A stretch of DNA of 64,000 nucleotides, taken from contig NC_073399.1 of assembly GCF_028641065.1 (NCBI RefSeq), positions 10,850,001-10,914,000 on the forward strand. The letters run 5' to 3'. This stretch comes from Leucoraja erinacea. Lineage: Eukaryota. Below the pieces are notes generated by a model. The model was given only the letters and a program-made list of their open reading frames with translations, was not told where the DNA came from and ran no database searches. Of the stretch, positions 40 to 63,254 are shown piece by piece; position 1 is the stretch's first letter; every line of letters starts with the position of its first letter. The position numbers and the translations under genes are program-made.

Positions 40-291
40 GCAGTTTGACTTCCGAAAATACAACACGTTGCACTTTTTCGAATTTAACTTCATTTTCCAT
101 TCCTCACCTCACTTACGCAGCTGATCAGGATCCCGCTGTAATTCTTGATGATCTTCTTCAATGTCTATTATATCACTATTTTTATTGTCATCTGCAAACG
201 TAACAACCTTGCCTTGTACATTCTCATCCAAATCATTGATATAGATGATAAACAACAATAACAATATATCAGGAACTGAAAAATATTTCAC
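40..291 (-). mobile_element. Degenerate CR1 LINE reverse-transcriptase fragment
   Basis: ORF 109..291 reads [23 protein letters not shown], the CR1 RT catalytic FADD region; decayed. Confidence 0.8.
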
Positions 292-2635: not shown

Positions 2636-2835
2636 CTCTTTCATAAAGCAAATGTTGGTTTATAACTAAGCAGCGATTTGTGATACAATCTTTTGGCGAG
2701 TCAGACTTATAAATAAATTCGTACTCGTTTATATTGTCCCTTATAACTACATATTTATATGGATGTTGTTTTTGAATCTTGTCTTTATGAACAGAATGGC
2801 ACCCTTCAATGAAGTATCCATGTTCTCCTAAATCC
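2636..2835 (-). CDS. RNF213: RNF213 (mysterin) coding exon, CBM20-like region second half; gene continues off the left edge
   Basis: aacag|G GAT TTA ... GAA AGA G|gtaag. Translates DLGEHGYFIEGCHSVHKDKIQKQHPYKYVVIRDNINEYEFIYKSDSPKDCITNRCLVI, matching RNF213 motifs DLG..EG..IPYKYV..YEFIY..NRCL. 200 nt, phase 2 in, phase 1 out. Confidence 0.93.
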
Positions 2836-2959
2836 CTGTTGAAGTGAAGTAAAATTTTTACAAATTGACCCAAAATAATCAAATAATTCAAACATAATAA
2901 ATCTAATTTTTTGAAAATAAAGTACAAATGAAAACAGTAAGCAATGCCGACATACACTC

Positions 2960-5472: not shown

Positions 5473-6443
5473 CTGCAGATTAAAAACAATGTTTATTACA
5501 AACAAAATCATAATAATGCTTGATAAGTCAAAAAATATTTGATAATTCATATTAGTGCTATTACCCTTTGGACAACTTGTCCCCATTTATTAGTGGTTTT
5601 AAAAATACATATGATAATTGATATTACATCTGAAACTATGATTACTGCAGAAGCTGGAAATATAAAACAAGAACAGTAAATGCAAAAAGTATTCAGAGGG
5701 TCAGGCCATATCAGTGGGAAGAGAGTCAACGTTTCAGGTTGGAGATTCTTCATCAGAACTTTAGTCAAGGTCTCTGACCCGAAACATTGACTTGGTTTCT
5801 CTACTCACATTTGCAATCTGTCCCTATGAATGTTATAAAATAAAACTATCTGAACTCAACTGTCACATTTATAGCAGGCTTTCAAAGTGGTGAGGACAAG
5901 TTAGATTAGAATTCTATGGAATATGGAAAGCGGGGAGTCGCCATTATTTCAAATTATTTGCGAAAGAGGACAACGGCAGTTACACAAGAAACAGGCTAAG
6001 GATAAATGTAAGCATGGTTGATCATTATAACAACTAGCAAAGAGAAAGTGGATGAATTGTAAATGCAAGAGGCCATGAAAGTAAGAAGACATGTTAAATT
6101 AAACAAAAACAACTAATAGGTTGCAACCAACAACAAAGTAAGACCTAATAAATAAAATGCAACATTAAGAAGTATAGGCAAGCATTGCAGAAAATAATCT
6201 AAAAGGCAAAAATCCAGAAGGGAAAAAATTAGAAGAAAAAAAGTGCCTCAAATACCTCCTGCTTGCCAAAGCAGGTAATCATATTGATAAACCCGAAATT
6301 TTATCCACCGAAACAAAATTCAGAATAACAAGATGTGAGATGAAGGACAGGAAGTTTGCTCAGCTAAAATCCAGCAAAAAATCATCTAAAGTTTTGCATT
6401 AAAAATAGTAATCTACCTATTAACTCAATCATTCTTTTCGCAC

Positions 6444-7899: not shown

Positions 7900-8180
7900 T
7901 CCATTGCACAGGAGAGGATTAAAAAAAATTGAAGAGCTCAAGCAATTAGGGATTCAAGTATAAGGGGAGAAGCCAAAAGTTTCTGAGGCCACTAGCAAGA
8001 TTTCAGGGTCATATATTGCATCACTGTTGCTAGAATCAAGGATGTCTCAATGTGGCTTGATGGTATTTTGGAAGGGAGAAGATGAACCGTGATGGTTATG
8101 GTACATGTCAGTATGAATAACATGACTGACAAAATGCAATATAAATTCAAATTAGAAAGCAGGACCCCAAAGGTAGTAGA
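7900..8180 (+). mobile_element. Decayed CR1 ORF1 (SGNH esterase-like) fragment
   Basis: Degenerate remnants of IGDS..RG, C.PGAR.KDV and VHV..N. motifs typical of CR1 ORF1; stops and indels present. Confidence 0.55.
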
Positions 8181-9440: not shown

Positions 9441-10443
9441 CTTGTAAAACAACAATAACAGTCAGATCATATGAATGACAGTAATCAGTATCATAAGCTT
9501 CCTGGATTTCAAAATTCCATTCCCTTTCCAACACACAAGCTATAAAGAATTGTTTTTCTAACAATACCGTTAATTAGAAAACTGCACAAATAAAACCGGG
9601 TTAAATGGTACGTATTCAATTGTATTCAGTGTGGCACTGATACCAGAATAATACAAACACAATATCTCAACGTAGTGAACATTTTTCCATTTTGCTCCAA
9701 TTGAATGTTTTACTGCATTTTGATAAGCATGAAACAGTTATTTATTAAGTTATCTATAGCTAGTAAAACATGGGTGCTATATTGTTGAATTCTAGATGTT
9801 ACCAAAATGTATTCTCTTCTACTTTAAGTGAAATAGACAATAAATCTATTTAACTCATACAAGAAATTAACTTTTCAAATTTTCAACTGAATAAAATGCT
9901 TCTTGTCAATTCATTTTTCAGATGTGGGCCTCACTGGGAAGGCCAGTTTGCCAACCCTAACTCTCTTTAAACTCCTTATTGAGTCACTGGGAAAAGAATT
10001 GGGACGATCATGTTAGTATATTAGTGCCCAGCATTTTAATACATACATATGTACAGGAATTTGCAGGAATTACATAAACTTTGCAAGGGTTTTAAATTAT
10101 AATGTGCTATGATGCCCACTTACGAAACCAGCTATGATGACTACAAGGCAGGCAAAGAGCTCATAACTAAGATTATTTTTTTAAATAACATAGAATTAAA
10201 ATAGCAATAAAGAAGTGTTAACAATATCTTGATCCTCAGCTTCCCCTGGATCCTGATCTTGCTTATTAACAATGCATAATGATGCACAACCATAATCGAA
10301 ATACACTGACAAGCTAGACACATTCTACAGCAAACCAGCTTTTCAGACTAAACCGATGTCTGTAAATTGCATGTTGGAACAAAGTCTACAGTTATGAAAT
10401 CATAGAATTGTTTAGTTAATTGACATCTTTGCACATTCTCTTC

Positions 10444-10587
10444 GTCGACCCAACGTTTCGGGACGAGATCCTTCTTCAGTCTGAAGAAGGGTCTCGACCC
10501 GAAATGTCACCCATTCCTTATCTCCAGAGATGCTGCCTGTCCCACTGGGTTACTCCAGCATTTTGTGTCTACCTTTGAATTGTGTCT
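10444..10587. mobile_element. Short Penelope-derived fold-back element flanked by a 45-bp direct duplication
   Basis: CCTTCTTCAG-T-CTGAAGAAGG palindromic centre; flanks 10399-10443 and 10588-10632 are near-identical (4 mismatches). Confidence 0.75.
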
Positions 10588-10721
10588 ATCATAGAATTAT
10601 TTAGTTCATTGACATCTTAGCACATTTTCTTCAAAGGTACTATCCAATGAGTAATAACCTCTATTACCGGTTATCCTTAATCTCGTAACTTTTTTTATTT
10701 TTCAAGTGTAACGTGAAATCT

Positions 10722-10950
10722 TAAGGTAGGCACAAAATGCTGGAATATGTCAGCAGGACAGACAGCATCTCTGGAAAGAATGAATGGGTGACGTTTCGGG
10801 GCGAGACCCTTCTTCAGGCTGAATAAGGGGCTTCACCCGAAATGTCACCCATTCCTTCTACCCAGTGATGCTGCCTGTCCCACTGAGTTACTCCGGCATT
10901 TTGTGTCTACCTTCGATTTAAACCAGCATCTGTAGTTCTTTCCTGCATAT
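10722..10950. mobile_element. Penelope-derived fold-back element (inverted 3'-end copies)
   Basis: AAGGTAGGCACAAAATGCTGG...CCCTTCTTCAG is mirrored by CTGAATAAGGG...CATTTTGTGTCTACCTT. The unit equals the 3' end of the GIY-YIG-bearing copies at 20.2-20.5 and 34.6-35.2 kb. Confidence 0.8.
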
Positions 10951-11289
10951 TCCTTTTCACAAGAAGAAACAGAAAAGTTGACAATCAGCCACAATGAAAT
11001 GTTATAAGTGGATCAGCAGCTCAATTAGAAGTAGGTTTTAAGATACATTTTAAAGAATCAAAATTGAATTGCAGATCTTGGAGCCTGGGTAGTCTTGGGT
11101 GTAGAGTGTGGAATTGAAGGAACATGATAGCTCAAGATAAAAGGAGCTATGCCTAGTGAGGATTAGTGATAGGGTGGTCTAAAAGGGAAGGTGGGGCAAA
11201 GATGGGATTTGAAATCAGGAAAGACAGGTTTAAAACTTAATGATAAAAGTAATAAAATGATGAGACATAGGTAAAGGGTATTCAGGGTT

Positions 11290-11590
11290 TTTTTCTTTGG
11301 ATGGAAATGTCAAATCGTAGAGGGTATAGGCTTAAGCTTAGAGAGGGAATGTTTACAGGCGATGTACAAGGCAGATTTCTTAAACACGACAGTTGCAAGT
11401 GCCCGGATATGCTGTCGGGCAAGCAGGAAGATAGAGACATCATAGCAACATTTAAGAGGCATTTAAACAGACATATGAACAGGTGGGGAACAGACCATGT
11501 ACAGGCAGATGGGATTCGTTTAAATTGGCATCACGATCGGAGCAAACATGACGGGCCAAAGGGCAGGCCCTGTTTTGTATTGTTCTATGT
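11290..11590 (+). mobile_element. Decayed CR1 3' fragment
   Basis: RGYRLKLR...IATFKRHLNRHMNR C-terminal ORF2 remnant followed by a GGGCCAAAGGGC-type 3' UTR. Confidence 0.7.
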
Positions 11591-12189
11591 ACAACCGATA
11601 TTGGTTATCGAGCACAGATTGAGCAGAGAATATAATTTGTCATAATATAGGCAGCAGAATTTTAAATTAGTTCAAGTTTATGGAGTTGGAAGTGAAAGAT
11701 GGGAATCTGGACAACACTGGTCGTCCACAGGTAACAAAGTCAAGGACACATCCATCAGCAGCAGACAAGCTGATACAAGATCAGTAATAGTCAGACTCTC
11801 AAGGAAGGTTATCTCCTTTAGATCGTTATCAATTGTCTTAAATCTGCTTCCTCCAATTACTGACCCATCAGCCATTTTCTCCCTACAACATTTATCAAGA
11901 GACAGAATTTCAAAACTTCCCATTATTTATCCTGATATACACAGTAAATAGAAGGGCCTTTAGGAGAGACAACGTGGTGCAGGTACATGGTTAAATGAAA
12001 GTGGCGACAGGTTGCTATGGAGGCATTTGGTACACTTTGCCTTCAGGAGCATTAAATTAAGCTTATTTTCCCAATTGTAAATATTTTTGAGAGGTGATGT
12101 CTTCTTATCTTCCTTATGCCAGGTATCTCTAACAGATGCTTATATCATTAATATGAAGCCACATATGAGGCTGATGATACAAAAGTTAT

Positions 12190-12350
12190 GGGCCTGTCCC
12201 ACTTATACGACTTATCCGGCGACTGCCAGCACCCATCATAGTTCGCCGAAAATTGTCAACATGTTGAAAATTCAGCGGCAACCAGAAAGACACTACTACT
12301 CTTTGGGTGACTGAGAGACTACTCACAACCATACAGGCGACACCCTGGCG
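12190..12350 (+). mobile_element. Truncated Harbinger-like non-autonomous element end
   Basis: Terminus GGGCCTGTCCCACT resembles the element at 39845; CGA-rich interior; right end replaced by CR1. Confidence 0.45.
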
Positions 12351-12700
12351 ATCTTATAGAGGTGTACAAAATCATGAGAGGAATAGATGCATAGTCTTTT
12401 GCCCAGAGTAGGGGAATCGAGGACCAGAGGACATAGGTTTAAGGTGAAGGAGAAAAGATTTAATAGGAATCCGAGGCGTAACTTTTTCACACAAAGGGTG
12501 TTGGGTGTATGGAACAAGTTGCCAGAGGAGGAAGTTGAGGCTGGAACTATCCCATCGTTTAAGAAACAGTGAGACAGGTACATGGAGAGGACAGGGTTAG
12601 AGGGAAATGGACCAAGCGCAGGCAAGTGGGACTAGTGTAGCTGGGACATTGTTGGTCGGTGTGGGCGAATTGGGCCAAGGGGCCTATATCACTCTATGAA
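12350..12700 (+). mobile_element. CR1 3' fragment
   Basis: ORF 12387..12572 SRTRGHRFKVK..RNFFTQRV.GVWNKLPEE. Confidence 0.85.
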
Positions 12701-12719
12701 TCTATGAGGAACAATTTAA

Positions 12720-13030
12720 TTTAGTTAATCGATACAGCATGGAAACAGGCCCTTTGGCACACCACGTCCACACCAACTATCGCTCACCTGTTCACACTAC
12801 TTCTAAGTTATCCCACTTTCTCATCCACTCCCTACAACAAAGGGTCAATTTTATTTTTATAGAGGCCAATTAACCTCCAAACACACGTCTCTGGGATGTG
12901 GGAAGAAACTAGAACCTGGGGAAACCTACCCACAGGGAGAACATGGAAACTCCACATAGACAGTACAGCATCCGAGGTCAGAATCGATCCCAGTTCTCTG
13001 ACGATGAGAGGTAGCAGTCCCACTATGCCC
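12720..13030 (-). mobile_element. HE1-type tRNA-derived V-SINE
   Basis: Reverse complement of the SINE family seen at 52226-52585 (B-box GATCGATTC, V-domain, AGGGCCTGTTTCC tail). Confidence 0.8.
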
Positions 13031-13168
13031 CCATAAAGCAAAGCGAAAAGAAATCATATTCCAAAAATATAGACCAAACTGTATGGAAATAGGCAGTTCG
13101 GAACAACTTGTCCATGCCAACCAAATTATCTGAAATTATGAAACTATTTGCTTATTTAGCCATCTTAC

Positions 13169-13369
13169 CTTCCGCTCTGGCTTGTGAGTTTCATGTTCAT
13201 TTGCTCTTTTGGGTGACAGGACTGAATTTTGCATTTCACAAGCATTCTCTGCTTCCTGTAAAGACGCTTCACTCTCACCGGCTGGCTGAATGGTGGACGA
13301 CACCTCCAGATTAACATTCTCTGATGTTAATAAATTTGGAACTTCAGTATTTTCATGAGCTTGTGCCAT
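13169..13369 (-). CDS. RNF213: RNF213 first recognisable coding exon (acceptor at 13371; ATG at 13369 may be the start)
   Basis: cctaaag|GA ATG GCA ... CGG AAG|gtaaga. Open frame MAQAHENTEV...KPERK; phase 0 out fits the 9440 exon. Good Kozak context (GGAATGG) if spliced from the mini-exon. No sequence similarity recognisable (disordered region). Confidence 0.72.
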
Positions 13370-13538
13370 TCCTTTAGGTAATTAAAAGTGAAGAAGTTCA
13401 AAACCAAAAATGAAAATCAGAATTGAAATAAAACTAACTGGTATGCTTTTTTCAAGAAATGCTCCTACAAGGTAGATAAAGGAAGGTAAATAAAGTTCCA
13501 AGGTTGGATGAATTTCTAACATAAACATACATTCTTAC

Positions 13539-13571
13539 CATCTGAATCAATTACACTGTTGACAAGTACTC
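13539..13571 (-). other. RNF213: Candidate 33-nt RNF213 mini-exon (5' UTR or coding GVLVNSVIDSD)
   Basis: aaatcag|GA GTA ... GAT G|gtaaga; strong donor, phase 1/1, in frame with the next exon; weak pyrimidine tract. Confidence 0.5.
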
Positions 13572-14236
13572 CTGATTTCAAATTATTATGTTAAATCAAA
13601 GAATATGGATTGACTTTCTTTTCGCAACCGTTCCTGATGAAATGTAGCCTAAATTGTTGTAGGAAGCAATGGAAGAAATTGCCTATTTGAGGTTGTTGCA
13701 TCTTTCATCGCCATACATTATCTACCAGAAGACTGAAGAGTGGCTGTTATGTCTTTATTTAAAAAGGGCTGCAAGGACAAGCCAGGTTACTATAGGCCAA
13801 GGAAAGACACAAAATGTTGGAGTAATTCAACAGGTCAGGCAGCTACCCTGGAGAACATGGATAGGTGACATTTTGGGTTGAGAGTCTTCATCAGACTTCA
13901 CCTATCCATGTCATCAATGGATACTGCCTAACCCACTGAGTTACTGCAGCATTTTATGCCTTTCCTTGTAAATCTGCAGTTCCTTGGAATTATAAGTCAA
14001 TGAGGCAATCAGTGGTGGGCAATCCACTGGAGGAGATTCTCAAGATCTCTAGGCATTTGGAAAGGCAAGAACTAATTAGGGATAGTAAGCATGGCTTTGT
14101 GCTCAGGGATTTGAGTTGTTCCTGGTGATCCCACCCATAATTCTATATACTTAAGTTGAATCTTCCTTCGGTGTCCTTTTGTCAAAAGAAACAACCCTAG
14201 CTTATTTAGTTTCTCCACATTTTAAAATGATCTGGT

Positions 14237-17003
14237 CAATAGACAATAGGAGTAGGCCATTCGGCCCTTCGAGCCAGCACAGCCATTCAATGTGATCATG
14301 GCTGATCATCCCCAATCAGTACCCCGTTGCTGCCTTCTCCCCATATCCCCTGACTGCGCTATTTTTAAGAGCCCTATCTAGCTCTCTCTTGAAAGCATCC
14401 AGAGAACCTGACTTCACCGCCTTCTGAGGCAGAGAATTCCACCGACTCACCACTCTCTGTGAGAAAAAGTGTTTCCTCGTCTCCGTTCTAAATGGCTTAC
14501 TCCTTATTCTTAAACTGTGGCCTCTGGTTCTGGACTCCCCCAACATCGGGAACATGTTTCCTGCCTCGAGCGTGTCCAAACCCTTAACAATCTTATATGT
14601 TTCAATGAGATCGCCTCTCATCCTTCTAAACTCGAGTGTACAAGCCCAGCTGCTCCATTCTCTCAGCATATGACAGTCCCGCCATCCCGGGAATTAACCT
14701 TGTAAACTGCCACTGCATTCCCTCTATAGCAAGAATGCCCTTCCTCAAATTAGGGGACCAAAACCGCACACAATACTCCAGGTGTGGTCTCACTCGGGCT
14801 CTATACAACTGCAGAAGGATCTCTTTCCTCCTATATTCGATTCCTTTTGTTATAAAGGCCAACATGCCATTCGCTTTCTTCACTGCCTGCTGTACCTGCA
14901 TGCTTACTTTCATAGACTGATTCCCAACTTGACGCCATTTAGATAGTAATCTGCCTTTCTGTTTTTGCTACCAAAGTGGATAACCTCACATTTATCCGCA
15001 TTTAACTTAATCTGCCATGCATATGCCCACTCCCCTAACCTGTCCAAGTCACCCTGCATTCTCATAGCATCCTCCTCACAGTTCACACTGCCACCCAGCT
15101 TTGTGTCATCTGTAAATTTGCTAATGTTATTTTGAATCCCTTCATCCAAATCATTGATGTATATTGTAAATAGCTACGGTCCCAGCACCGAGCCTTGCGG
15201 TACCCCTAAAGTCTCTGCCTGCCATTCTGAAAGGGACCAGTTAATCCCTACTCTTTGTTTCCTGTCTGCCAACCACTTCTCTATCCATGTCAGCACTCTA
15301 CCTCCAATACCATGTGCCCTAATTTTGCCCACTAATCTCCTATGTGGGACCTCAAATGCTTTCTGAAAGTCCAGGTACACTACATCCACTGGCTCTCCCT
15401 TGTCCATTTTCCTAGTTACATCTTCAAAAAATTCCAGAAGATTAGTCAAGCATGATTTCCCCTTCGTAAATCCATGCTGACTCGGACCGATCCTATTACT
15501 GCTATCCAAATGTTCGGCTATCTCATCTTTTATAATTGACCCCAGCACCTATCCCACCACCGATGTCAGGCTAACTTGTCTATAATTCCCAGTTTTCTCT
15601 CTCCCACCTTTCTTAAAAAGTGGGATAACATTAGCTACCCTCCAATCCACAGGAACTGATCTTGAGTCTATAGAACATTGGAAAATTATCACCAATGCAT
15701 CCATGATTTCTAGAGCCACTTCCTTAAGTACCCTGGGATGCAGACCATCAGACCCTGGGGATTTATCAGCCTTCAGTCCCATCAGTCTATCCAACACCAT
15801 TTCCTGCCTAATGTGGATTTCCTTCAGTTCTTCCGTCACCACAGATCCTCTGGCCACTGCTATATCAGGAAGATTGTTTGTGTCCTCCTTAGTGAAGACA
15901 GATCCATAGTACCTGTTCAACTTATCTGCCATTTCCTTGTTCCCCATAATAAATTCACCTTTTTCGGTCTTCATGGGTCCAACTTTGGTCTTAACTATTT
16001 TTTTCCTCTTCACATACCTAAAGAAGCTTTTACTATCCTGCTTTATATTCTTGGCTAGCTTACCTTCGTACCTCATCTTTTCTCTCCGTATTGTCTTTTT
16101 GGTTATCTTCTGTTCTTTAAACATTACCCAATCCTCTTGCTTCCCGCTCATCTTTGCTATGTTGTAATTCTTTGCTTTAATTTTTATACTGTCCCTGGCG
16201 TCCCTTTCTCCCCTTGGAATCTTTCTTCCTCCTAGGAATGAACTGATCCTGCACCTTCTGTATTATTCCTAGAAACACCTGCCATTTTTGTTCCACTGTC
16301 ATTCCTGCTAGTGTATCTTTCCAGTCAACTTTGAGCAACTCCTCCCTCATGGCCCCATAGTCCCCTTTATTCAACTGCAACACTGACACCTCCGATCTAC
16401 TCTTCTCCCTCTCCAATTGTAGATTAAACATGACCATGTTATGGTCACTGCCTCCTAATGGCTCTTTAACTGCGAGGTCCTTTATCAAATCCGGTTCATT
16501 ACATAACACTAAATCCAGAATTGCCTCCTCCCTGGTAGGCTCCAATACAAGTTGTTCTAAGAATTCATCACAAAGGCACTCTACAAAGTCCCTTTCGTGG
16601 GGTCCAGTACCAACCTGATTTTCCCAGTCTACCTAAATGATGAAATCTCCCATAACAACCACAGCATTGCTTTTGCTACATGCCAATTTTAACTCCTGAT
16701 TCAACTTGCACCCTATGTCCAGGCTACTGTTTGGGGGCCTGTAGATTAGTCCCATTAGGGTCTTTTTACCCTTACAATTTCTTAGTTCTATCCATACTGA
16801 CTCCACATCTCCTGTTTCAATGTCAACCCTTGCAAGGGACTGAATTTAATTCCTCACCAGCAGGGCAACCCCACCCCCTCTCCCCACCTGTCTGTCTTTT
16901 CGATAGGTGGTATATGCTTGAATATTCAGTTCCCAGCCCTGGCCCTCTTGCAGCCATGTCTCAGTAGTTCCCAGCCCTGGCCCTATTGAAGCCATGTCTC
17001 AGT
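14237..17003 (-). mobile_element. CR1 LINE, long decayed copy (endonuclease C-terminal part, RT, 3' UTR) with internal deletions
   Basis: ORFs: PTREEAILDLVL..LGGSDHN (APE endonuclease), [56 protein letters not shown]; CAATAGA tail at the low-coordinate end. Confidence 0.93.
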
Positions 17004-17594
17004 ACTTTTACCTCCCTGCACTCTACTTTGTTAAGGTAGCTTATGTTACTGTGACAATCATACCATATACCGTACTATAGCTTCTAACAATGGCCAGTTT
17101 CAAATAGTTGTAACCCGATCTACCTACGTCCCAGCTAAGAAACACAAGTATCTTGATGCATTCTTTAGCATCTTAGTTTGATATTTTCAGAATGTCTGAG
17201 ATCCTTTCCATTTCCGATATATCGTTTCTTGCTCACTATTTCTGTTTATTTTTGCTCACCATCACCTCACACTTTCCTGCATTGTGCTATTTGGACAATA
17301 ACCACCTCCCCACATTGTTTATCATATTTATAAATGACATTAATGGAGGCCACTCATCCTTTAACTCTATACCAGCCTTCAGAGGATTTACATCATGTGT
17401 AGGAAAGAACTGCAGATGCTGGTTTAAATCAAAGGTAGACACAAAATGTTGGAGTAACTCAGCGGGTCAGGCAGCATCTCTGGAAAGAAGGAATGTGTGA
17501 CGTTTCGGATCGAGACCCTTCTTTCTTCAGTTCCATTCACCACACATTTCCCTATAACCTTTCCTCTTCCACAGGCCCTTCAAGGGTGAGAGTG

Positions 17595-18480
17595 GACAGA
17601 GAGGTGGAGGATAGGAAATTGAAAGAGAGGGGAAAGAAAGGGAAGAGAAAGTGATATGGAAAGGAGGTGAGGAAGAAGAGGGAGGAGGGAATGGGGTTGG
17701 GAAAGGAGGTGGCGGAGGGAATTGAGATAGAATAGAGAGGAAAAGAAAATGAAGGGGGTGAGAACGTGATGGGGAAGAAGAGGTGGTGGGGATGGGGAGG
17801 AGGTAATGGAGAGGGGGAGGGGGTGATTGGGAAGAGGTGATAGGGAGGGAAGAGGGAAAATGAAGTAGATGGCGGGGGGAGGAAAGACAAGGGATAGCGA
17901 GTGGAAAGAAAATGAGGGGGGAAGTGAAGGGGAGTTGGGGGAAAAGGAGGAGGTGGAGGAAGGAGTTGGGGAGGGGGAGGTTGGGACCAACGCGCTGAGG
18001 TGACGAGCGGCCGCCGGGCAAGAGCCGTGGCGCGAGCACTGACAGCGCGGCGTCGTCACGCGCGCCAACGGCCGGCGGGGAGAGCGCGCGGCTGAGGGAG
18101 GGATGGAGGCCGCTGCTCGAGCGCCGCGGGATGCGGACACGGTCTCCCTCTCTCTCTCTCACACATAAACACGCACTTCCCCACTCCTCCCCTTCTCTCT
18201 TCTGCCATCCCTTCTTCCACCTGCCAACTCTCCCTCTTTCGTCATCCCTTTCTCCTTCTTTTCTGACTCTCCCCCAACCCATCCTCCTCCGCCATCCCCT
18301 CTCCCTCCCATCCCTTTTCCCTCTCTCACCCCCCCTTTCCCTCCTCTCTCCCCCTTTCCCTCCTCTCTCCCCCCATCCCCTCCTCTCTCCCCCTTTCCCT
18401 CCTCTCTCTCGCCCCCCTTTCCCTCCTCTCTCTCGCCCCCCCTTTCCCTCCTCTCTCTCGCCCCCCCTTTCCCTCCCTCC
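17595..18480. repeat. Polypurine tract / CpG-rich core / polypyrimidine minisatellite
   Basis: 17595-17985 almost only G/A; 17985-18140 very CpG-rich; 18140-18480 C/T-rich with ~24-bp CCCCTTTCCCTCCTCTCTCTCGCC-like units. Confidence 0.85.
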
Positions 18481-18586
18481 AGCTCCTATCCGCAAGAGAC
18501 CGCAACGCTGTTTTTATGTCGCAGCAATCCGTGTTTACAAAACAGTCGGGGGAAGAAAGCTGGATGAAATAAACGTGGCAACTGAC

Positions 18587-18720
18587 CTTGGACTGTCCCG
18601 GGGGAGCCGGGCCTGGGCTCCGGCCCCTGCGGGCGTCGGGTTGCAGGAGGACGTCGCAGCCTCCGCCGTGTCCCGGAGACCACTCTCTCACCGCCGATGC
18701 TCCGCTCTGCTCTGCTGCAT
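18587..18720 (-). other. RNF213: Probable non-coding exon 1 of RNF213 within a CpG island
   Basis: GC/CpG-rich segment immediately downstream of the IRF/STAT motif cluster, ending in donor CCAAG|gtcagt; TSS position is a guess. Confidence 0.5.
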
Positions 18721-18728
18721 CGGGTGTT

Positions 18729-18827
18729 ACTTTCGTTTTTATTACTCCCAGGTCCAAATCTTACTTTCAGTTTTGAATTTCCGAGAAACCCGATTTGGAG
18801 TTTGCATCTTGGTTGGGTTTCGGTTCC
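18729..18827 (-). promoter_or_regulatory. Interferon-responsive promoter motif cluster (two IRF-E/ISRE-like, GAS, EICE) of RNF213
   Basis: Minus-strand AAAACGAAAGT (18729-18739), AAAACTGAAAGT (18763-18774) and GGAACCGAAA (18818-18827), plus TTCCGAGAA (18779-18787), all within 100 bp upstream of the CpG exon. Confidence 0.7.
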
Positions 18828-20204
18828 GTAAATTCTGCCATTGCAACTTGAACGACGAAGGCAGCATCGTTTAAAATTCTACAGACATGATATCTCGAGT
18901 AAAACACAAAGTGTTGGTGTAACAGCAGGACATCTCCATTTCAATGACAACTATGACATTTCACTCTCACAATACTTGATGAAATATAGCCACGCAGCAG
19001 AGAAACGGGCCCAACTTGCCTATGCTGACCAAGATGTCCCATCCACGTTAGTCCCACCTGCCCGCATTTGGGTCAATGAAACGTCACCTATTCCGTCTCT
19101 CCAGAGATGCTGCATGTCCTGCTGAGTTACTCCAGCTTTTTGTATGTATCTTTGGTTGAAACCAGCATCTGCAGTTCCTTCCTACTTGCCTTCATCAGTC
19201 AGGGTATTGAGTAAGAGTGTCTACCTTTCTCCAAGGGTCAACAACCAGGGAAATATAATGAAGATGGCAAAAGTGAGGAGGTGAAAACTTTTTGCACAAT
19301 GATTTAATAGAACCTGAAGGCATTGTCCAGAGGAATGGTATGGTAGCAGAATCAATTGTGATGTTCATTAAAAGGTTCTTTAATTGCTCTTGCTTGTTGC
19401 CTGCAGTGAGCCAAACATCTTGATATTTTCTGTAAATCATTCTTCAGAATAGAGCTCTGGGAAGCACATAAATTGAACATCTAATTGAACATAGCAAAAT
19501 AATACAAAGTGCCGGAGTAACTCAGCAGGTCTGGCAGCATCTCTGGAGATAGGCGATGTTTCGGGTTGAGACTCATCTTTAGACGTGGTAACCAGCATCT
19601 GCAGTTCTTTGTTCCTACAGCAAAATAATGCCTTTGTTTTTTAGTTAGAAACCCTTTGGGAGCTGAAATCTTGTCAACAATGGAGCATTGCAAGCAAGTG
19701 GTTATTCCCAATGTGACATTCATCAATGATGTTGCCATTGTAAATCTGTTTTGAAACCTTTCCATTTATCGTAAAATGATTTCTTATATAAAGTTCGGGA
19801 AAGAGAAAGACTTCAGGAAACCAAAACTGCTAAATTAGTTGTTATGCTCTGAGTCATGGGGAAGAATCATTGAAATCTAATTGTTTAATTATTTGAATGG
19901 AAATTATTCACCAATTGACAGGTTACAGGAAAGAAGTGAAGGCCTTCAGTTTGCAGAGGATGTTTACAAGCTTTTGCCAGAACTGAAAATTGTAGCCGTG
20001 CAGAAAGATTGGATAAGGCACGGTTGTTTCCTTTGCTTGACCTGCTGAGTCACTCCAGCATTTTGTGTTTAACTGAGGATTCCAACATGCAGTTCCTTGT
20101 GTCTCCATACCTGGATCTCTTTAGCTGACAGGGTGTTGAAGGCAGAACCCCATCTGCTGAGTTACTTGGATGCGTGTCTGAAGGTGCTGTGGAACCAGAT
20201 GCTG

Positions 20205-20520
20205 CGGCACCATTGTCAGAGTGAGGCCCAGCGCAAATTGGAGGAACAGCACCTCATATTTCGCTTGGGCAGTTTACACCCCACCGGTATGAACATTGAC
20301 TTCTCTAACTTCAGAAAGCTCTTGCTTTCTCTCGCCATTCCCTTCACCTTCCCAGTTCTCCTACTAGTCTTACTGTCTCCGACTACATTCTATCTTTGTC
20401 CCGCCCCCTCCCCGACTTCAGTCTGAAGAAGGGTCTCAACCCGAAACGTCGCCCATCCCTTCTCTCCAGAGATGCTGCCTCACCCGCTGAGTTACTCCAG
20501 CATTTTGTGTCTACCTTCAG
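20205..20520 (+). mobile_element. Penelope-like element 3' fragment with intact hammerhead-like core
   Basis: HCQSEAQRKLEEQHLIFRLGSLHPTGMN (PLE GIY-YIG C-terminus) followed by CTGAAGAAGGGTCTCAACCCGAAACGTC at 20423-20450. Confidence 0.85.
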
Positions 20521-20859
20521 AAAAGGTGAAGGTAGTCACAAAATGCTGGAATATCTCAGAGGGTCAGACAGCATCTCTGCAGAAAAAGAATAGGTGACAT
20601 TTCGGGTTGAGGCCCTTCTTCAGACTGAGAATCAGGGTAGAGGGAAATTAGGGGTATGAAAAGGTATTGAACATATCGGAGCTGGCACTGATGACCAACA
20701 AAAGGTGGAGCCCACAATGGTCCATTGTTGGCTGTGGAAAAGGTGACAATGAAGGTGAAGAAGCTGTGGATTTGGGTAGATATGACAATGCTTTGAAGCT
20801 GAGCTAGTCCATTGCTGGGTACTTCTGCCGAGGATTTGAGCTGAGGAGCAAGGAAGTCA

Positions 20860-25229: not shown

Positions 25230-25890
25230 GCTGGTCAAGCCTCGACTAAGCGACCTTTCTGCTTGCTGAACACCTCTGCTCTGTCCACCAAAGCGTGCTG
25301 GATCTCCCAGTTACTAATCATTACAAAACCTACCATCAGTGGCACTCCCCGTGGTCTTCCACCAACGATTCCACCGACCCTCGCCACTCCACCGCCCTGC
25401 AGCAGCACGCAGCCGTCGTCTTAACTGCAGCCTCGACTCAGCACCAAGCCTGAAGCTTCCACGCTGCAGACCAAAGCTGCAGACTCCCACTACCCTGGGT
25501 TTGACTGTGCTGGATCCTAATGCCAGTCCCCCCAATTCCACTGGGTCATCCCCATCCCCCTCAAACCATGTGACCCCAGCTCTTCCCCACCCACACTACA
25601 GTCCTCATACCCCCCTCCCCCCTGACCACCCACCACCCCCCCACCAGAGATCGCCTCGGCCTCAGTCCACTCACCTGCCTTCCTCCGGTCTCAACCTCCA
25701 TCCTTGCCGTGTGTTCATCATCCCCCCTGACCTCCTCCTCTCAGATACCGAACGGTCTGTCCTCATCAGAGGCCTCACCTTTGTCCCCCTACGTTCCCAC
25801 CTCAATGGGTTCCGCACACGCCGCGATTTGGAGCTCTTCTTCCGTTGCCTCTGCCTCACAGTGGTCTTCCATGGGAAGGAGTCCTCGCCT
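25230..25890 (+). mobile_element. Penelope-like element fragments (N-terminal pre-RT region)
   Basis: ORF 25339..25893 RVFIIPPDLLLSDTERSVLIRGLTFVPL...RRDLELFFR matches the LS..E..VL.KGL.F.P motif at PLE N-termini. Confidence 0.75.
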
Positions 25891-30066: not shown

Positions 30067-31147
30067 TCAATTTATCACTTTAATCAATGGCTGGTAAATG
30101 GGTTTAATGATAATGTGAAGGTGAAGAGAATTGTCAATCAAGTACTCTGAGGAACGTTTCTGAAGATCAGCTTGAAAGAGGAAGTCACCGGTTTCTTGGG
30201 TGCTTTGGTGGAAATTATACACATGCTTCACGTAGGACCTTCCATCTTGCTTCACTTTCACCAAGATAGTCTTCTGAAAGCTGACTCCTGCAAAGCCGAC
30301 GCTGTTGGTAGCAGGGTTGATGATTATCCTTGGCCTACCATCTTCTGGGCTGCGGGTCTGGAGTGCTCCATAACTATATGAAGAGTGAGAGTGCCTGGAG
30401 TTGATGGGCTGCCACCTTGGTGAGAAGAGAGCGTTCCATGTCACCCTTTTGCTCGAGTCGGAGTTACTGGCCGTCAGCTGGGTTTGGAAGCTGTTGCTAC
30501 GATCATCTCGAGCAGGGTTATTGATCACCCATGGGGATCCCCAGGAACTAGACAAATAATTCCTTGGTATAAAGAGGCTACAATTGACATCGAAATATTT
30601 GGCAAACACCAGGGGTGTGGTGGAGTGAAACTGGAAAGCAAGGAAAAGTAAGTCGTGGACGGAACTATAATGCTCGTTGATGATGGGTGATTGCTTCTGC
30701 ATGTGGAACAAATGCTGGGGGCTGATCATGGCGTAACGGATTGACTTGAGAACGGTGTCTGTGACCGTGACATCAGGTTGGTTCTTCTTTATCCATTCTT
30801 CGATTGCATAATAGATTTCCAGTTCATTTTCCACAACCAGATCGGAGCGTTGGAGCAGGGCAATCATCAGATCATCACTAACTGTTTGCCACTCTGGGCT
30901 GTGAATGACACTGGACATATTCCAAGCCAGAAACTGCTTGCATCTTTCCTGTAGTTCCTCGTTACCTATCCTGACCGAGTAATGATACCACCTGACCACA
31001 TGGCCTTGTGGCAAAGCAGTGGCGAGGTGTTGAGTCATGTATTCAATGATGCCATGCTGCAGGGCTGCAATGTGGTACTTGCTGGCCAGTTTATGTAGTG
31101 AGACAACTTGATTCAAAAGGATGGTGATTTCACCACTGTACAAGTAT
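30067..31147 (-). CDS. BTBD17: BTBD17 coding exon 3 (end of BTB, BACK domain, C-terminus)
   Basis: ttttcacag|A TAC TTG ... TGA. 1081 nt: YLYSGEITILLNQVVSLHKLASKY, CKQFLAWN, LLQRSDLVVENELEIY, PRNYLSSSWGSPWVINNPARDDRSNSFQTQL, LHLHIIIKPIYQPL. Confidence 0.95.
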
Positions 31148-32849
31148 CTGTGAAAACAAGACAGAAGCCTCCTGTTACACGTGTATTATTTTACTTATTA
31201 ATATTAAACTATTTCCACAACTAGCTGGCAGTGGGTATATGGAAGGAGTGGCCAGAGGAGGTAGTTGAGGCAGATATTATAACACCGTTAAAAAGATACT
31301 TGGATAGATACATAAATAGGAAAGGGATATGGGCCAAACATGGAAAAATGGGACAAGCTTAGATGGGGCATCTTGGTCGGCACGGACGAGATGGGCTGGA
31401 GGGCCTGTTCTATGCTGTATGACTGATCCTAACTAAAATTCAGTGAACAAATCTGAGAACCATACTATTTGGATAGCACTGTGCATGAACAGTTATTTCA
31501 GTTCATTTGTGTCCCTGAAACACACAAGACGTCTGGAATAGACATCTGGAAAGTCACATGCTTCACGTTAGGCTTGGAAAATTCCTGTTTTTAAATTATG
31601 TTTGTCCTTGATTGAAATTTGCTTGGGTAGGCTGCAGGAACATGGTGATACCCAACTCAATTTCCTGGCAAGCATTCTTTCTCTTTATAGGTTCAATTTG
31701 CCCATCCCAAAATCCTACAATTTTATCTATTCATTTAATCAATGAATATTTATTTGCAAAATGTAATGCTTCCATTTACAATGGTTACAATGCTGCTTGC
31801 CTTGTTGTCTTGTCAAACTTAGATTAATTGATGGAATTTGTAAGCAAAATACAACGAATAACCAAGCCAAATTACTGATTCTTATAGGACATAATTTTCC
31901 TTACAATAAAGAAGTAGTACGTCATTCGACCCATTAAGTCCATGCCAGCTCTCAGAACAATCCCATTAATCCCATGTAGAAACAAAGAACTGCAGATGCT
32001 GGTTTATACAAAAATACAGAAAGTCCTGGAGTAACAGCAGCTCCAGGCAGCATCTCTGTCAAATATGGATAGGTGACGTTTCGAATTGGGAGTCTGAAGA
32101 AGGATCCCAACCTAAAATGCCACCTATCCATGCTCTGACTCGCTGTTACTCCAGCACTTTGTGTCCATCAATCCCATTCCAGAATTGTATCCCCATAATT
32201 TATTCTCCTTGGCATGCCCTTCAACTCCACCCTGGTTCTCATTCCACACTTCTGCCCTGGGAATAATTTTCAATAGCGAATGAACCTAATAACCAACAAG
32301 GCTCTGAGAAATTGGAGGAGCGGAAGGAATGCACACAATTAGCGGGAAAAATTGGACATTGCAGATGCAGAAATCAGGAGCAGAAAATAAACTGCGGATA
32401 TTCGACTTTGTCTGTGGGATTGGTGTGTGACAATGCTGAGGACTATATTCTGCATTCTGTATCTCGTCCTTTGCTCTATCTATTGTGCTTGGTTGTGGCT
32501 AGATTGTATTGATGTGTAGTATTATTTATTCTATTTGGAATGCATGCAAAACAAAGCTTTTCACTGTATCTCGATGAACATGATCATAATAAACTTAAAC
32601 GTAAACCTAAAGATGCTGCCTCACCCGCAGGGTGTTTCCAGCACATTCTGTTTTTATTTCAGATTTCGTACCTGTTATCTTTTTTTGCTTTTCCTTTCAT
32701 GACATGATAAATAGTGTGCATTCAGGTGAAGAGTGTACATATTCTCCTTGCCTGCTATGTCTGCTACCGAGTTGGCCAGTGAGTGCCTGAACGTTAAAGA
32801 TGCTCGGCAGAAATTTTAGGCCTTTATGCTTTTGTATGCTTTTCAATTC

Positions 32850-33240
32850 AGCCGGTTCGATCCTGACCATGGGGGCTGTCTGTGTGGAGTTTGCATGTTC
32901 TCCCTGTGACTATGTGGGTCTCCTCTGGACACTCCAATTTCCTCCCACATCCCAAAGGCGTGTGGGTTTGTATGTTAATTGGCCTCTGTATTGAGTTGCA
33001 CGTTTTCCCTGTGATCGTGTGGGTTTCTTCGAGGTGCTCCGAATTTCCTCTCGCATCCCAAATATGTGCAGGTGTGTAGGATAAATGACCTCTATAAGAA
33101 TTGCCCTTGTCTGTAGGGAGTGGATGAGAAAGTGGGATAACATAGAACTAATATGAATGGATATAATCGATGATTGGTGTGTGGTTGGTAGGATGAAGGT
33201 CTTGTTTCCATGCTGTATTTCTAATGTAAACTAAACTAAA
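32850..33240 (+). mobile_element. HE1-type SINE(s) with internal duplication, BTBD17 intron 2
   Basis: GGTTCGATCC B box; V-domain twice; CTAAA tail. Confidence 0.8.
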
Positions 33241-33307
33241 TCCATTAGACATCTCATTATGGTTATAATGAAGTATAAAGTCATAGAGATATCTGAACTG
33301 CATTTAC

Positions 33308-33590
33308 CTGAGTAGTTTCTCAAAAATGACAGCACATTCAGCTGTTTCACGCAGAACAAGAGTGGTGATACTTTGATTCAGCAGGAGGTCCTCAAAGACA
33401 TCACTCTGCAGGACGAGAAGAAGGTGGTGAGTGTGGAAGACTTTGACTTCATCTGAGTTCGCCGTGTAGACTTTCAGCATGATGTCACTTGAGTTGGAAT
33501 TGTGCAGGAGCCCCTGAAGGTGATCAATGAGGACTGAAGAATGGTTGATCGTTGCAATCGCATTGTCATTGTTTAGATCTATTTTCTGAG
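33308..33590 (-). CDS. BTBD17: BTBD17 coding exon 2 (BTB domain)
   Basis: cgacatag|CT CAG ... CTC AG|gtaaat. 283 nt: TINHSSVLIDHLQGLLHNSNSSDIMLKV..DEVKVFHTHHLLLVLQSDVF..ECAVIFEKLLR; phases 1 and 2 fit. Confidence 0.95.
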
Positions 33591-34556
33591 CTATGTCGAA
33601 AAAGACAACAGAATAAACATAAATCCTTTTAAAAAGATTATTCAGTATTACAAGAAGGTACAAGGAACTGCAGAAGCTGGTTTATACACAAAAGACACAA
33701 AGTGCAAGAGAAACATTGCCTATCCATGTTCTCCAGTGATGCCACCTGACCCGCTGAGTTACTCCTGCACTTTCTTTCCTTTATATACTACATTGCCTTT
33801 TACAGCATATTCAGGAGCATCTTATAGCTAAAGAAGTTCCCTTAAAGCAAAACTACTGTTGGCTTGCAATGTCAGCCGCAAGCAGGCCTTCAAATATGTT
33901 CTGGAGGTATAAAAGGAACAGGAACAGCTATGTGCAAGGTTAGTCAGAGCTTGCACAAGTTGTGTGGTTGGACATGAGGTTTAGAGTGTGGCCCATTTGG
34001 GTGAACAAAGGCGTGGTATGGTGGCGCAGCAGTAGAGTTTCTGCATTACAACGCGGGTTTGATCCTGACTATGGGTGCTGTCTGTACGGAGTTTGTACGT
34101 TCTCCCAGTGACCACGCGGGTTTTCTCTGAGTAGCTGGGATTTTCTCTCGCAATGGAGGAGCCCCAAGACTGAAAGATCGATATGGCCCTAATGCGGGCA
34201 ATTGGATTAGTATAGATGGGTAAAGAAAACATCGTGGACAAGAGAACAACAACATCAGAATACTTCATACACTTTTGACCTTTATGTATGTCAATTGTTT
34301 TAAGGTCAATTCAAATTTAAAGGCAGAAAATCCATTCCCTTGCATTGCTTTTTGCATCCTATGGCAGGTTGAATTTTGAGACAGCTCCCAGAAGATGCAT
34401 TTAATAACATGACAGTTGATCTGTGGGAAAGCAGCAATTAGAGAATCTTACCCGAGAATCTAGAGTTTGCAAAGGGAATTGGATATGTAATTGATAAAAT
34501 AGAAGCCATGGCAAAGAGCAGAACAAGGACTCATTGGTCAGTTCAGTTAACTTCGG

Positions 34557-35210
34557 TTGATCGGTCCCATCGACGGGACCAAGCCCAGGCTTGGCGATCG
34601 TTTCGTTGAACACCTCCGCTCAGTCCGCCCACGTCCCTTTATCTCCCCCTTCGACTCCATCCAAGGACCCAAACAGTCTTTCCAGGTGAGGCAGAGGTTC
34701 ACTTGCACCTCCCCCACCCTCATCTACTGTATCCGCTGTTCCAGGTGTCAATTTCTCTACATCGGCGAGAACCAGCGCAGGCTCGGCGATCGTTTCGCTG
34801 AACACCTCCGCCCAGTCCGCCTTAACCTACCTGATCTCCCGGTTGCTCAGCACTTCAACTCCCCCTCCCATTCCCAATTTGACCTTTCTGGCCTGAGCCT
34901 CCTCCATTGTCAGAGTGTGGCCCAGCGCAAAATTGGAGGAGCAACACCTCATATTTCACTTGGGCAGCTTACACCCCAGCGGTGTGAACATTGACTTCTC
35001 TAACTTCAGATAGCCCTTGCTTTCCCCCATTCTCCATCCCCTCCCCCTTCCCAGTTCTCCCACCAGTCTTACTGTCTCTGCCTACATTATATCTTGGTCC
35101 CACCCCCTGCCCTGACATAATTCTGAAGAAGGGTCTCAACCCAAAACGTCACCCATTCCTTCTCTCCAGAGATGCTGCCTCACCCTCTGAGTTACTCCAG
35201 CACTTTGTGT
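34557..35210 (+). mobile_element. Penelope-like element 3' part with GIY-YIG endonuclease
   Basis: FTCTSPTLIYCIRCSRCQFLYIGENQRRLGDRFAEHL..PVAQHFN; the RLGDRF.EHLR segment is duplicated upstream; 3' repeat with hammerhead-like core at ~35123-35150. Confidence 0.92.
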
Positions 35211-36450: not shown

Positions 36451-37934
36451 CCCACAATGTTGGCAGGTTGGACAAAGAGAGAGGGAGAATGGCGGGAATT
36501 ACTTAAAATTGGAGATTTGAATGTTCATAGTGCTATGCCCTGGAAAGTGTATTAAACTACATGTCTGACGATCGGGAATTTGAACAGTTAATTCTTGCTG
36601 CTCCTGTCGGTATTGGCAAGATATTTAGCTTGGGCTACTTCTATGAGCTTGCCTCATTTGTACTGGTCCTGTCACATTGAAGGTTAAATCAGAAATGTTA
36701 ACTCATTTGAATATCTAAAGACATCCAAAGGGACAACACTATGTACTTGAGTGGATTCAAGCCCATTTGCACTGAAAGCTGAGTACACATCAGACCACTT
36801 TTAGCTGAGAAGTTTCATTTACATAAAACAACACGCCTCTTGCAATCTTTTCAAAATAAATATTTGAACAACAAAATCTATTTAACTTCATAAGGTTTTA
36901 CAGAACTAACTTTCAAGTGGTTGACTTCTCTTTTCTTTGCTGTAGTCATTTGGTAGAATGACAACTGGCAGAATACTCTTTCTCCCGTTCTCAGTTCTCA
37001 GAGCTTAATACAAAGGAGCATGATTCGGCCATATGGCCCCTGGAGTCTTCTTCACCGTTCAATACATCATGGCTGTTCCTGTGCCCAGATTCCTGCCTGA
37101 TCTCCATATGTCATGGTTCCCTTCGAGCCCAAAACCCATTTATCACAGATGTCACTGTATTCAATGAACAAACCTCCGCAACTTGCTGGAGTAGAAAATT
37201 GCAGGGTTGCAGCCCTTAGAAGCTGCCTGATTTCTTATCATGACTATGAACACCATTCAATGGTTTAATGTTTGTTTTTATTATCACGTGTACTAAAGTA
37301 CAGTCAAATATATTTCTAGCATGCACCTCAGTAAGACTATCCTCCGTACATGAGTACAATCCCCCAGTCAGTACAGAACACCTTTCAAAAGTGTAGGAAG
37401 GATCTGCAGATGCTGGTTTAAAACAAAGATAGACACAGAATGCTGGAGTAACATAGTGTGACAAGCAGCATCTCTGGAGAGAGCGAATGGGTGACGTTTC
37501 GGGTCGAGACCCTTCTTCAGACGTGCCATTTAGTCTCTCTTCATATTTTGCTGTTGAAATGAACCACTTAACTGTATCACATTTCTCCCACCAAATGTCC
37601 GCCCATTCATTCCTGTCTATGCTTTCTCATGACCTATTTCCCTCCTCCTCACTATTCACCACAGCTCCAGGCTGTGAGCCACAAGCAAATGTAGAGATTT
37701 TTGTGCTGCACATCCAAGTCTGTTATTAGTATATCAATAAAGAACATCCAAGTCCCAGGAATGACCCTGGAAATCTCCGCACTCCACCATTCTGTGTGCA
37801 CCATTCCGTGTGCTTAAGCAAAGCAAGAATTTAATTGTCCTATACAGGGACACATGACAATAAACTCACTTGAACTTGAACTTGAACTTCTCTACTCGGA
37901 TAATTAGTTTCCACTTGAAGACAATTTCCTGTTG

Positions 37935-52585: not shown

Positions 52586-53386
52586 ATGCCAGGCAACTGG
52601 GTTGTCATTGGGAGGGATTATGAGCTGAAGAATTTGCCATTTAAAGGCCATGCAGAGTTTTTAATGAAAGCTGGCTGGGAGTTTAAGCAGCAATCAGTTA
52701 TCCAACAAGCTCCCAGGCAACTGAAACCTGGAACTGGTTTCATCTCGTCTAAGAAGCTGCTGCCATAAGCAATCTACATTAATGCTTCGCTTTAAGATTC
52801 CAGATGGTCCATCGTGTTACTGTCTAAAGTGTTCACCCCCCACCGATGCCTTGACAAATGTTCCTACTCTCATATCGTGCTAATGTTGTGTACCAATGTC
52901 TAACTTGTGTCTGTCTTTGCCAGACTAATATATAGAAATGAGAAAACTGAAACAATAACAGAATGCATTGGAAACATTCCCGGTATCTGTGAAAAGAAAT
53001 GCGTGGTTAATGTTTCAGGTAAAAAAAAAACACAAAGTGATGGAGTAATTCAGAGGGAGATAAAAATGCTGGAGAAACTCAGCGGGGCAGGCAGCATCTA
53101 TGGAGTGAAGGGATATGTGACGTTTCGGGTCGAGACCCTTCTTCAGACTCAGAGGGTCACACAGCATTTCTGGAGGACATGGATAGATGAGGTTTCAGGT
53201 CGGGACCCTTCTTCAGACTGATTGTGGTGTGGAAGGGAGAAAGCTGGAAAAGAGAGGTAGGGGTGATAAAGTCGGGCGAGTGATAGGTGGATTGGAAAGA
53301 ACTGCAGATGCTGGTTTACACCAAAGATAGACACTAAATGCTGGAGTAACTCAGCATTTGTCTGAGGAAGGGTCCCGACCCGAAAC

Positions 53387-62156: not shown

Positions 62157-62360
62157 GTGTAGGAAGGACCTGCAGGTGCTGGTCTAAACCGAAGATAGAC
62201 ACAAAATGCTGGAGTAACCGAACGGGACAGGCAGCATCTCTGGAGAGAAGGAGTGGGTGACGTTTCGGGTCAAGACCCTTCTTCAGTCTTGACCTGAAAC
62301 ATCACCCATTCCTTCTCTCTAGAGATACTGCCTGTCCCGTTGAGTTACTTCAGGTTCTTG
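62157..62360. mobile_element. Penelope-derived fold-back element
   Basis: GTGTAGGAAGGACCTGCAG...GTGACGTTTCGGGTCAAGACCCTTCTTCAG followed by the inverted arm GAAACATCACCCATTCC...GAGTTACTTCAG. Confidence 0.8.
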
Positions 62361-63254
62361 TGTGATAGAAACAATGACAGCAAACCTGTCAGCTTTTCTG
62401 TCATTACACTCTGAAACAACAGTAGCTTTTGGATTAGAGATCTTGCCAAGTACTTTGTGGAAACAAGGAACTGTAGGTGCTGGTTTAGAAAAAAAAAGGC
62501 ACAGTGCTGGAGTAGCTCAATGGGTTAGGCTGCATCTCCGGAGAACGTGGATGGGTGATGTTTTGGGTCTGGACCCTGCTTCAGACTCCTTTTCAGGCTT
62601 CATCAACAAAATCAAGAGCTTGACCTAACTCAAGAGATTTATATTCTAGCTTTTACTTTAGACCTTACTTGAGAGATACAGCATTTAAACAGGCCCTTTG
62701 GCCAACCAAATCCGAGCTGACATACACATCGATTACACTAGCAATGTCCTACACGTATGGAACAATTTACAACTTTACCAAAGCCAATTAACCAACAAAT
62801 CTGTATGTCTTTGGAGTGTGGGAGGAAACCGGAACACCCGGAGAAAACCCACGCGGTCACAGGATCGCTACAAACTCCACACAGACAGCATGCATAGTCA
62901 GGATGGAACCTGGGTCTATAGCGCTGTAAGGCAGCAACTCCACCACTGTGCACCATGCTGCCTTGCTGTGAGACATATTAGAAATTTTACATATATCATT
63001 GCAAAAACTAAATCATGATTTTTAATCATCATGCTTGAAGCCACAATCAGTCATTAACAAACCCTCTAGCCCTGAATATTAAATCATTTTTTGCAAATTG
63101 TAATTTTCCCATTTAACCATTTCAAAATGATTTTTACATTTTATGTTTAAATTTTTATTTAACTTTGACATCAGCACTGTGATTAATTTGCCAACCACAG
63201 ATTCAGCACCAAGGAAACCAAATCCATCTAAAAGTGGATTTCCCCGTAGCAAGC

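Follow-up and report, generated by a model that had tools for sequence, protein, structure and literature searches.

The stretch analysed here, hereafter the window, comprises 64,000 nucleotides of Leucoraja erinacea (contig NC_073399.1, positions 10,850,001 to 10,914,000 of the forward strand) and contains coding exons of RNF213 and BTBD17 together with many fragments assigned to a Penelope-like element (PLE), one of which bears the hammerhead motif under study (Table 1). The limits of both genes are drawn from a CpG island and a signal-peptide-like frame; the island, at 18001-18500, is probably the RNF213 promoter or first exon. Within these limits the focal copy (core at 20423, plus strand) probably lies in the intergenic region between RNF213 and BTBD17, and for this reason, and because of its strand, it is sense to neither gene. 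RNA reads over positions 1-20000 were swamped by repeats and yielded no RNF213 intron structure. Large fragments of a second retrotransposon, of LINE type and with RT-like frames, are found at 570-2406, 14319-16632 and 53567-54754 (-); these, which we take to be CR1/L2-like, have received many short PLE copies. PDB searches with two other open frames returned nothing useful.

Table 1. Features of the window, with positions counted from its first nucleotide
Feature	Position	Strand	Remarks
RNF213 coding exon	2646..2849	-	E 4e-9
Old decayed copy	5725..5756	-	CTGATGA; stem II broken
Two head-to-head pairs	10452..10938	.	joined at TCAG-N-CTGA palindrome
Old head-to-head pair	13788..13973	.	CTGATGA arm decayed
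5'-truncated PLE 3' end	20210..20518	+	last ~35 endonuclease codons, pyrimidine-rich 3' UTR, hammerhead, tail-less main 3' end
TCAGTCT	20418..20424	+	initiator-like, also resembles an acceptor (CAG after polypyrimidine tract); pile-up of short-copy 5' ends
Minimal hammerhead motif	20421..20452	+	from sequence and published consensus
Tail-to-tail neighbour of focal copy	20527..20645	-	core at 20623; ACGU changed to AUGU
PLE ORF fragment N-terminal to RT	25318..25890	+	query used to find long copies
BTBD17 coding exons	30073..33681	-	30073-31185 and 33307-33681
Longer PLE 3' fragment	34551..35210	+	GIY-YIG endonuclease region, UTR, decayed hammerhead
Solo short copy	37401..37522	-	start -2, with tail, intact core; sense in putative BTBD17 first intron
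Short copy	53054..53150	-	intact core (53146)
Head-to-head pair	62169..62365	.	core at 62286(-) intact, stem I lost

In the focal copy, stem I consists of 2 bp, formed by GU at 20421-22 and GC at 20451-52, and the catalytic boxes are CUGAAGA (20423-29), GAAA (20443-46) and UC (20449-50). An extra A at 20430 separates A9 from stem II (GGGU 20431-34 / ACCC 20439-42), the G10.1-C11.1 pair corresponds to G20431-C20442 and the palindromic 15.2-16.2 positions to CG at 20447-48. Cleavage is predicted after 20450; in the numbering used below, in which core C3 is position 0, this places the cut between +27 and +28. Stem II had been described as GGG/CCC, but it is a 4-bp rather than a 3-bp helix, closed by a 4-nt loop (GGGU/YYCG/RCCC). 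The proposed recurrence of the motif across the window is borne out, with 13 matches to CTGANGA..GAAAC vs 0.95 expected and 56 copies of a ~100-nt terminal unit in a profile search. With a descriptor modelled on the published consensus, the window holds eight intact cores, five of which have a 2-bp stem I. Three of these five (20423, 37520 and 53146) also keep the ACGU palindrome, and they account for three of the four cores called intact in the original prediction; the fourth, 62286(-), retains its core but has lost stem I (upstream bases GA) and is an arm of a head-to-head hairpin. The copies with CTGATGA reported at 5725-5756 and 13865-13897 are present, but with stem II or stem III decayed, and the 4-bp stem I at 5725-5756 was ruled out as covariation, being found in a single decayed copy. 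The hammerhead descriptor gave no matches on the reversed sample, and an Rfam scan of the window gave none at gathering scores. The copy at 20527..20645 folds back onto the 3' part of the focal copy (z -6.6), and the direct neighbour of the 53054..53150 copy (core at 53216) has lost the palindrome.

The motif almost certainly belongs to a PLE, presumably of Neptune type, and sits in its terminal repeat (pLTR); its original description as a minimal hammerhead of type I, carried by a Penelope-derived repeat that has been massively amplified, is supported. A genome search found the order UTR, core, tail and ATG in 17 of 30 top-scoring ORF starts, with core C3 163-167 nt before the ATG, which is thus at about +164. 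The 3' end of the copies lies at about +93 or, where a ~37-nt tail is present, at +130, this tail being a PLE signature, and partial tandems and inverted 5' copies occur alongside this optional 30-40 bp tail. The unit measures mostly 3.8-4.1 kb (3.2-4.5 kb among 14 tandems). Long copies contain a single ORF with matches to RT and to a C-terminal GIY-YIG domain, mostly below Pfam cut-offs (RVT_1 E 3e-6, below the cut-off; GIY-YIG E 1e-4 in copy L037, just above the cut-off, and weaker elsewhere). A C-x4-C-x2-C linker precedes the endonuclease, in which a CxxC between the GIY-like and YIG boxes and two downstream His form a CCHH motif; a CX2-5CxxC linker marks Neptune and Nematis PLEs (PMC8557442). 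The ORF is long, with an open frame of 1193 aa in copy L154 and a start codon further upstream, and its N-terminal region is proline-rich. Open frames of up to 1193 aa are seen in the young copies L153, L154, L165 and L168, in which the N-terminal ~500 aa are without Pfam match. The heptamer CCAGCAT occurs twice within +45..+130, once ahead of the main end and once within the tail; both occurrences are complementary to ATGCTG at about +50 and may position both priming sites.

Over 2.19 Gb of the skate's own genome, the exact 32-nt motif has 8,598 matches, the exact core with GGG/CCC 37,361 and a 35-mer of the youngest family 49,427. Copy numbers were extrapolated from eighty 10-kb stretches taken at round positions of the 29 largest contigs, a systematic sample that omits small contigs: its 326 terminal units correspond to 0.89 +/- 0.15 million copies and its 43 descriptor-intact cores to about 118,000. 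Head-to-head copies make up 110/326 of the sample, 18/56 of the window and 26/100 of young copies (among the matches listed). Their junctions often lie at small palindromes, either TCAG-N-CTGA or the stem II hairpin, and priming on both strands at the cut, or fold-back of the cDNA, fits such palindromic junctions. At G000:C2:21142569-21142752, four matches to the middle of the core at 40-78 nt spacing form a small hammerhead-fragment array.

The short copies have a sharp 5' edge. In a young set of 100 consecutive copies among the matches listed to an internal 35-mer (contig C1), there are 45 starts at -7..0, 13 at +1..+6, 10 at +9..+11 and 5 at +26..+37, and 27 copies are long; none of these listed matches starts at -8..-49 or at +27..+29, around the cut site. 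Their 3' ends, also among the matches listed, fall at +88..101 in 64/100 and at +124..134 in 33/100. A mixed-age sample gives a similar picture, with 124/288 scored copies starting at -8..0 after 94 weaker copies were dropped. A cut-site footprint at +28, sought in the same material, was rejected (4/288 mixed copies; 0/100 young copies among the matches listed), and only 1/12 truncations between core and ATG lies at the cut site. Two copies start exactly at +28 (L308, identical to L191, and L126:8138), too few to exceed chance. Exact target duplications of 8-15 bp flank 32/42 solo short copies (shuffled mean 0.2) and duplications are found in 24/64 copies of the mixed sample vs 3.8 in shuffles, so that the short copies represent complete insertions. 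The edge coincides with TCAGTCT, and a polypyrimidine tract followed by CAG ends at -2; the consensus of initiators is YYANWYY. Two other sources of the pile-up were considered. An artefact of other 3' UTRs was rejected for most copies, since only 12/82 solo upstream flanks are pyrimidine-rich and the duplications abut the start. The CAG might also have been joined by splicing to an exon of the host or the element; this was rejected for duplication-flanked copies, in which no exon stands between duplication and element. Short-read RNA-seq showed no pile-up of read starts or ends at the 5' edge, the reads being swamped by read-through copies. In a single-cell run, reads on the PLE ORF at L166:6700-7250 are mostly of the minus strand (library orientation not established). 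Short fillers separate target duplication and element start in L113:907, L123:6514 and at window position 21988, and some resemble the target, or the 3' end of the element, in inverted form. The edge is probably the front end of the PLE RNA, at which the cDNA would run off.

The base just upstream of the start bears on this reading. Genome-wide, G:T one base before the start is 545:354 for copies starting at -3 and 1319:747 for copies starting at -2 (genomic G:T background 0.87 and 0.74; p=9e-4 and 5e-5), although the excess at -3 starts vanishes when the background is conditioned on the two following bases (fold 0.99). At a control site, +4 starts, the ratio is 43:57 (first 100 of 140 copies, hand-counted), and boundary starts have an extra G before them roughly twice as often as this control. 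A small local sample had an extra G in 8/19 copies, which is not significant (p=0.12), and several of the extra Gs fall within the target duplication. A variant master does not explain the extra G, because the native upstream bases are TCAGT in 77/80 UTR-bearing young copies. Addition of C at run-off, cap-derived or untemplated, is a known behaviour of reverse transcriptases; a literature search on cap-derived G returned nothing relevant.

More-than-unit insertions, in which a partial upstream copy precedes the element, behave differently at the edge. Among tandem upstream copies that reach this point, 0/17 stop at -7..0 on the second pass vs 45/72 on the first (young copies, among the matches listed; p=9e-7), and with the zone widened to +7 the counts are 2/19 vs 58/85 (matches listed; p=4e-6). 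The lengths of the upstream copies scatter, from -73 to beyond -1336. Twenty tandems were refetched and 14 had both ends; in all 14 the upstream copy is 96-100% identical to the element's own 3' end, which is closer than the median other element in 14/14 and ranks first in only 7/14, a result that falls short of proving origin from the same molecule. A target duplication surrounds the whole tandem unit in about 8 of the 14, judged by eye. It follows that the tandems represent single more-than-unit cDNAs of one source lineage. Since 0/17 full-length copies start at -3, the run-off model needs a second class of template, and the read-through of the edge in 17/17 suggests that this is an end-less (circular or multimeric) RNA, or that strand transfer is efficient.

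On these grounds we favour, with somewhat less assurance than the reading of the edge itself, a model in which the 95-135 nt copies are inert run-off cDNAs of uncut RNA starting 2-5 nt before the core. RNA polymerase II RNA would begin at TCAGTCT, the putative start site that defines the 5' edge, and the RT would start internally at one of two sites, +93 or +130, by analogy with the anole PLE, which is primed internally provided that RNA is present downstream of the start sites (PMC11167929). On a linear RNA, the sequence required downstream for priming would be available at the 5' repeat alone, and short cDNAs would run off the 5' end. Tandems would require a template that lacks the 5' end of the linear RNA. 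Among such templates the most likely is a unit circle made by the hammerhead, with multimeric RNA or strand transfer between repeats fitting the data just as well: two hammerheads of one transcript would pair via ACGU, cut and ligate, an arrangement that would keep every base and let both motifs of a transcript dimerise. A hammerhead-made circle was earlier proposed by Cervera and De la Pena (PMC4209133), and as the template of the tandems it is put forward here tentatively. Still more speculative is the division of labour between two RNA forms, a capped linear RNA giving hundreds of thousands of retrovirus-like strong-stop insertions with a cap-derived G, and a unit circle, made by the paired hammerheads of both repeats, giving the more-than-unit cDNAs that rebuild the pLTR.

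A stop at the edge need not be the end of a template. The RT might instead meet a roadblock on its first pass, formed by PLE protein or by host factors sitting on the hammerhead, on the C-rich tract or on the splice-site-like CAG, much like the template boundary of telomerase. The restriction of the stop to the first pass (none of 17 on the second) and the polypyrimidine tract with CAG ending at -2 would suit this idea; in Drosophila virilis the Penelope start site is situated well upstream, and helix I is where an intron ends (PMC4209133), so the 5' edge could be splice-related. However, the extra G at boundary starts, absent at +4, fits run-off, no young copy among the matches listed (n=100) stops within the C tract at -8..-49, and no shared upstream exon lies between duplication and element, which makes a roadblock rather improbable. 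Even less probable is that the short units form a separate, SINE-like family copied from short masters. A sharp 5' end, target duplications of their own and a very high copy number are what such a family would display, but the share of tailed copies is equal in short and long copies (19/58 and 9/27; young, matches listed), short copies carry the subfamily variants of ORF-bearing copies, the 5' edge recurs in several subfamilies and the head-to-head junctions vary from copy to copy. The non-autonomous amplification raised in the original prediction is not supported, and the short units are better read as repeated short products of an autonomous element.

Whether the hammerhead acts at all has to be weighed separately for source elements and dispersed copies. 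Conservation was assessed in five subfamily clusters (155/162 aligned copies, omitting a cluster of 7). The CUGANGA, GAAA and UH boxes are invariant in the five subfamily majority lines, and the excess of core over flank conservation that had been set as a check is found: 0/13 core columns vary across subfamilies vs 17/61 downstream (p=0.03). It follows that the source elements kept the motif. Covariation of stem II was sought as well, and here there are one-sided changes that preserve pairing but no two-sided covariation; across subfamilies, U-A is replaced by U-G in both stem I and stem II, and the loops change as well. Inserted copies, in contrast, decay alike in core and flank (6.9% vs 7.7%, CpG excluded). 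One could hold that not even full-length elements use the hammerhead, which would be vestigial and kept as promoter or protein-binding sequence, while tandems would arise by cleavage-free strand transfer between repeats. Stem I has 2 bp in 115/163 cores and at least 3 bp in only 10, the folds of short monomers do not surpass those of shuffled sequences (z -0.2 to 0.85) and are not hammerheads, a forced hammerhead dimer reaches -4.7 vs -14.4 kcal/mol for the best cofold in a calculation that ignores tertiary contacts, and there is no cut-site footprint; moreover, core mutants did not block insertion of the anole PLE in vitro, for which its hammerhead is dispensable (PMC11167929). Against this, all consensus features persist across subfamilies with pairing kept in stems I and II, published motifs with a 2-bp helix I exist (PMC4209133) and the anole ribozyme cut once protein was added (PMC11167929), and we regard a vestigial hammerhead as a minority possibility.

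According to the converse reading, which is very improbable, the dispersed copies have ribozyme activity and cleave host pre-mRNAs, for example those of BTBD17 or RNF213. This reading could appeal to the large number of descriptor-intact cores extrapolated above, to the abundance of the unit in polyA reads and to the copy at 37520, the only intact sense copy in a putative intron, here of BTBD17. Yet none of the 34 intact cores found across 864 kb is accompanied by another intact one on the same strand within 1 kb, published minimal PLE hammerhead monomers showed no cutting (PMC4209133), RNA read depth is unbroken over the cut site, and copies within the putative gene spans show no strand bias (7 sense, 8 antisense). 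Of the intronic sense copies proposed for RNF213 and BTBD17, only that at 37520 is an intact one. To judge from sequence, lone monomers with a 2-bp stem I and no strand bias make cleavage of host RNA unlikely. Self-cleavage of the dispersed copies, as originally suggested, finds no support in lone monomers that lack an intact partner, have core decay close to that of the flank and show no starts at the cut site; these copies are likely inert.

In all, the ribozyme class is already known, the host family is new and its dispersed copies are probably dead. The value of the family is mechanistic, as it gives nucleotide-level predictions on PLE replication (start at -5..-2, priming at +93 and +130, an end-less template for tandems) and young, nearly intact copies exist in which these can be tested. 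A repeat about as numerous as human Alu is probably the by-product of abortive copying. The rebuilding of the pLTR and the role of the hammerhead in PLEs are described as open in the portions of the literature available, and if the reading with two RNA forms were true, the genome would preserve traces of those steps of PLE replication that are still missing and show what the minimal hammerhead is for. Searches of the literature returned nothing on this PLE family or on strong-stop PLE products, nor 'strong-stop' together with 'pLTR' in a PLE context, and the available text of PMC10115646 has no use of 'Penelope'.

The motif shares with metazoan PLE hammerheads (PMC4209133) the CUGANGA box with its extra base, the G10.1-C11.1 pair, GAAA, the palindromic CG and UH, as well as the location in pLTRs and the occurrence mostly as single dispersed copies with some close opposite-strand pairs. 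Helix I has 2 bp, a length listed in that source for D. virilis, Culex and Oikopleura, most other rows having 3-5 bp, and helix II differs in being short (4 bp). The 37,361 strict cores exceed the about 4,000 and 9,000 called remarkable there, with descriptors that differ between the studies. No description of a sharp 5' edge of solo copies was found in the sections available, and one of its supplements holds no shark or skate terms, while another may list sharks. The element resembles Neptune and Nematis EN+ PLEs (PMC8557442, PMC3846280) in its RT and C-terminal GIY-YIG, CX2-5CxxC linker, partial tandems, inverted 5'-truncated copies, 30-40 bp tail and target duplications, and differs from them in its long ORF with a proline-rich N-terminal region. 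Moreover, solo units of 95-135 nt, each flanked by a duplication of its own, are its most frequent product, whereas the solo pLTRs described from rotifers are without duplications. Anolis Poseidon PAc (PMC11167929) offers a parallel, in that the RT starts internally at two sites, which set the tail, both strands are cut and extended, the hammerhead is near the ORF start and no RNA ends lie at the cut site; the ATG is inside the hammerhead in PAc and 164 nt downstream of it here, and the sections available yielded no discussion of run-off products at the RNA 5' end. Finally, non-LTR retrozymes (bioRxiv 10.64898/2026.07.22.740005) also have a type I hammerhead of PLE pLTR origin; that work includes one chondrichthyan, and its supplements may cover the skate family. 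Retrozymes are defined by a complete ribozyme in at least two consecutive head-to-tail units, an arrangement seen for 0/34 cores in 864 kb, and while they form head-to-tail arrays with a ribozyme in each unit, the copies described here are solo or head-to-head.
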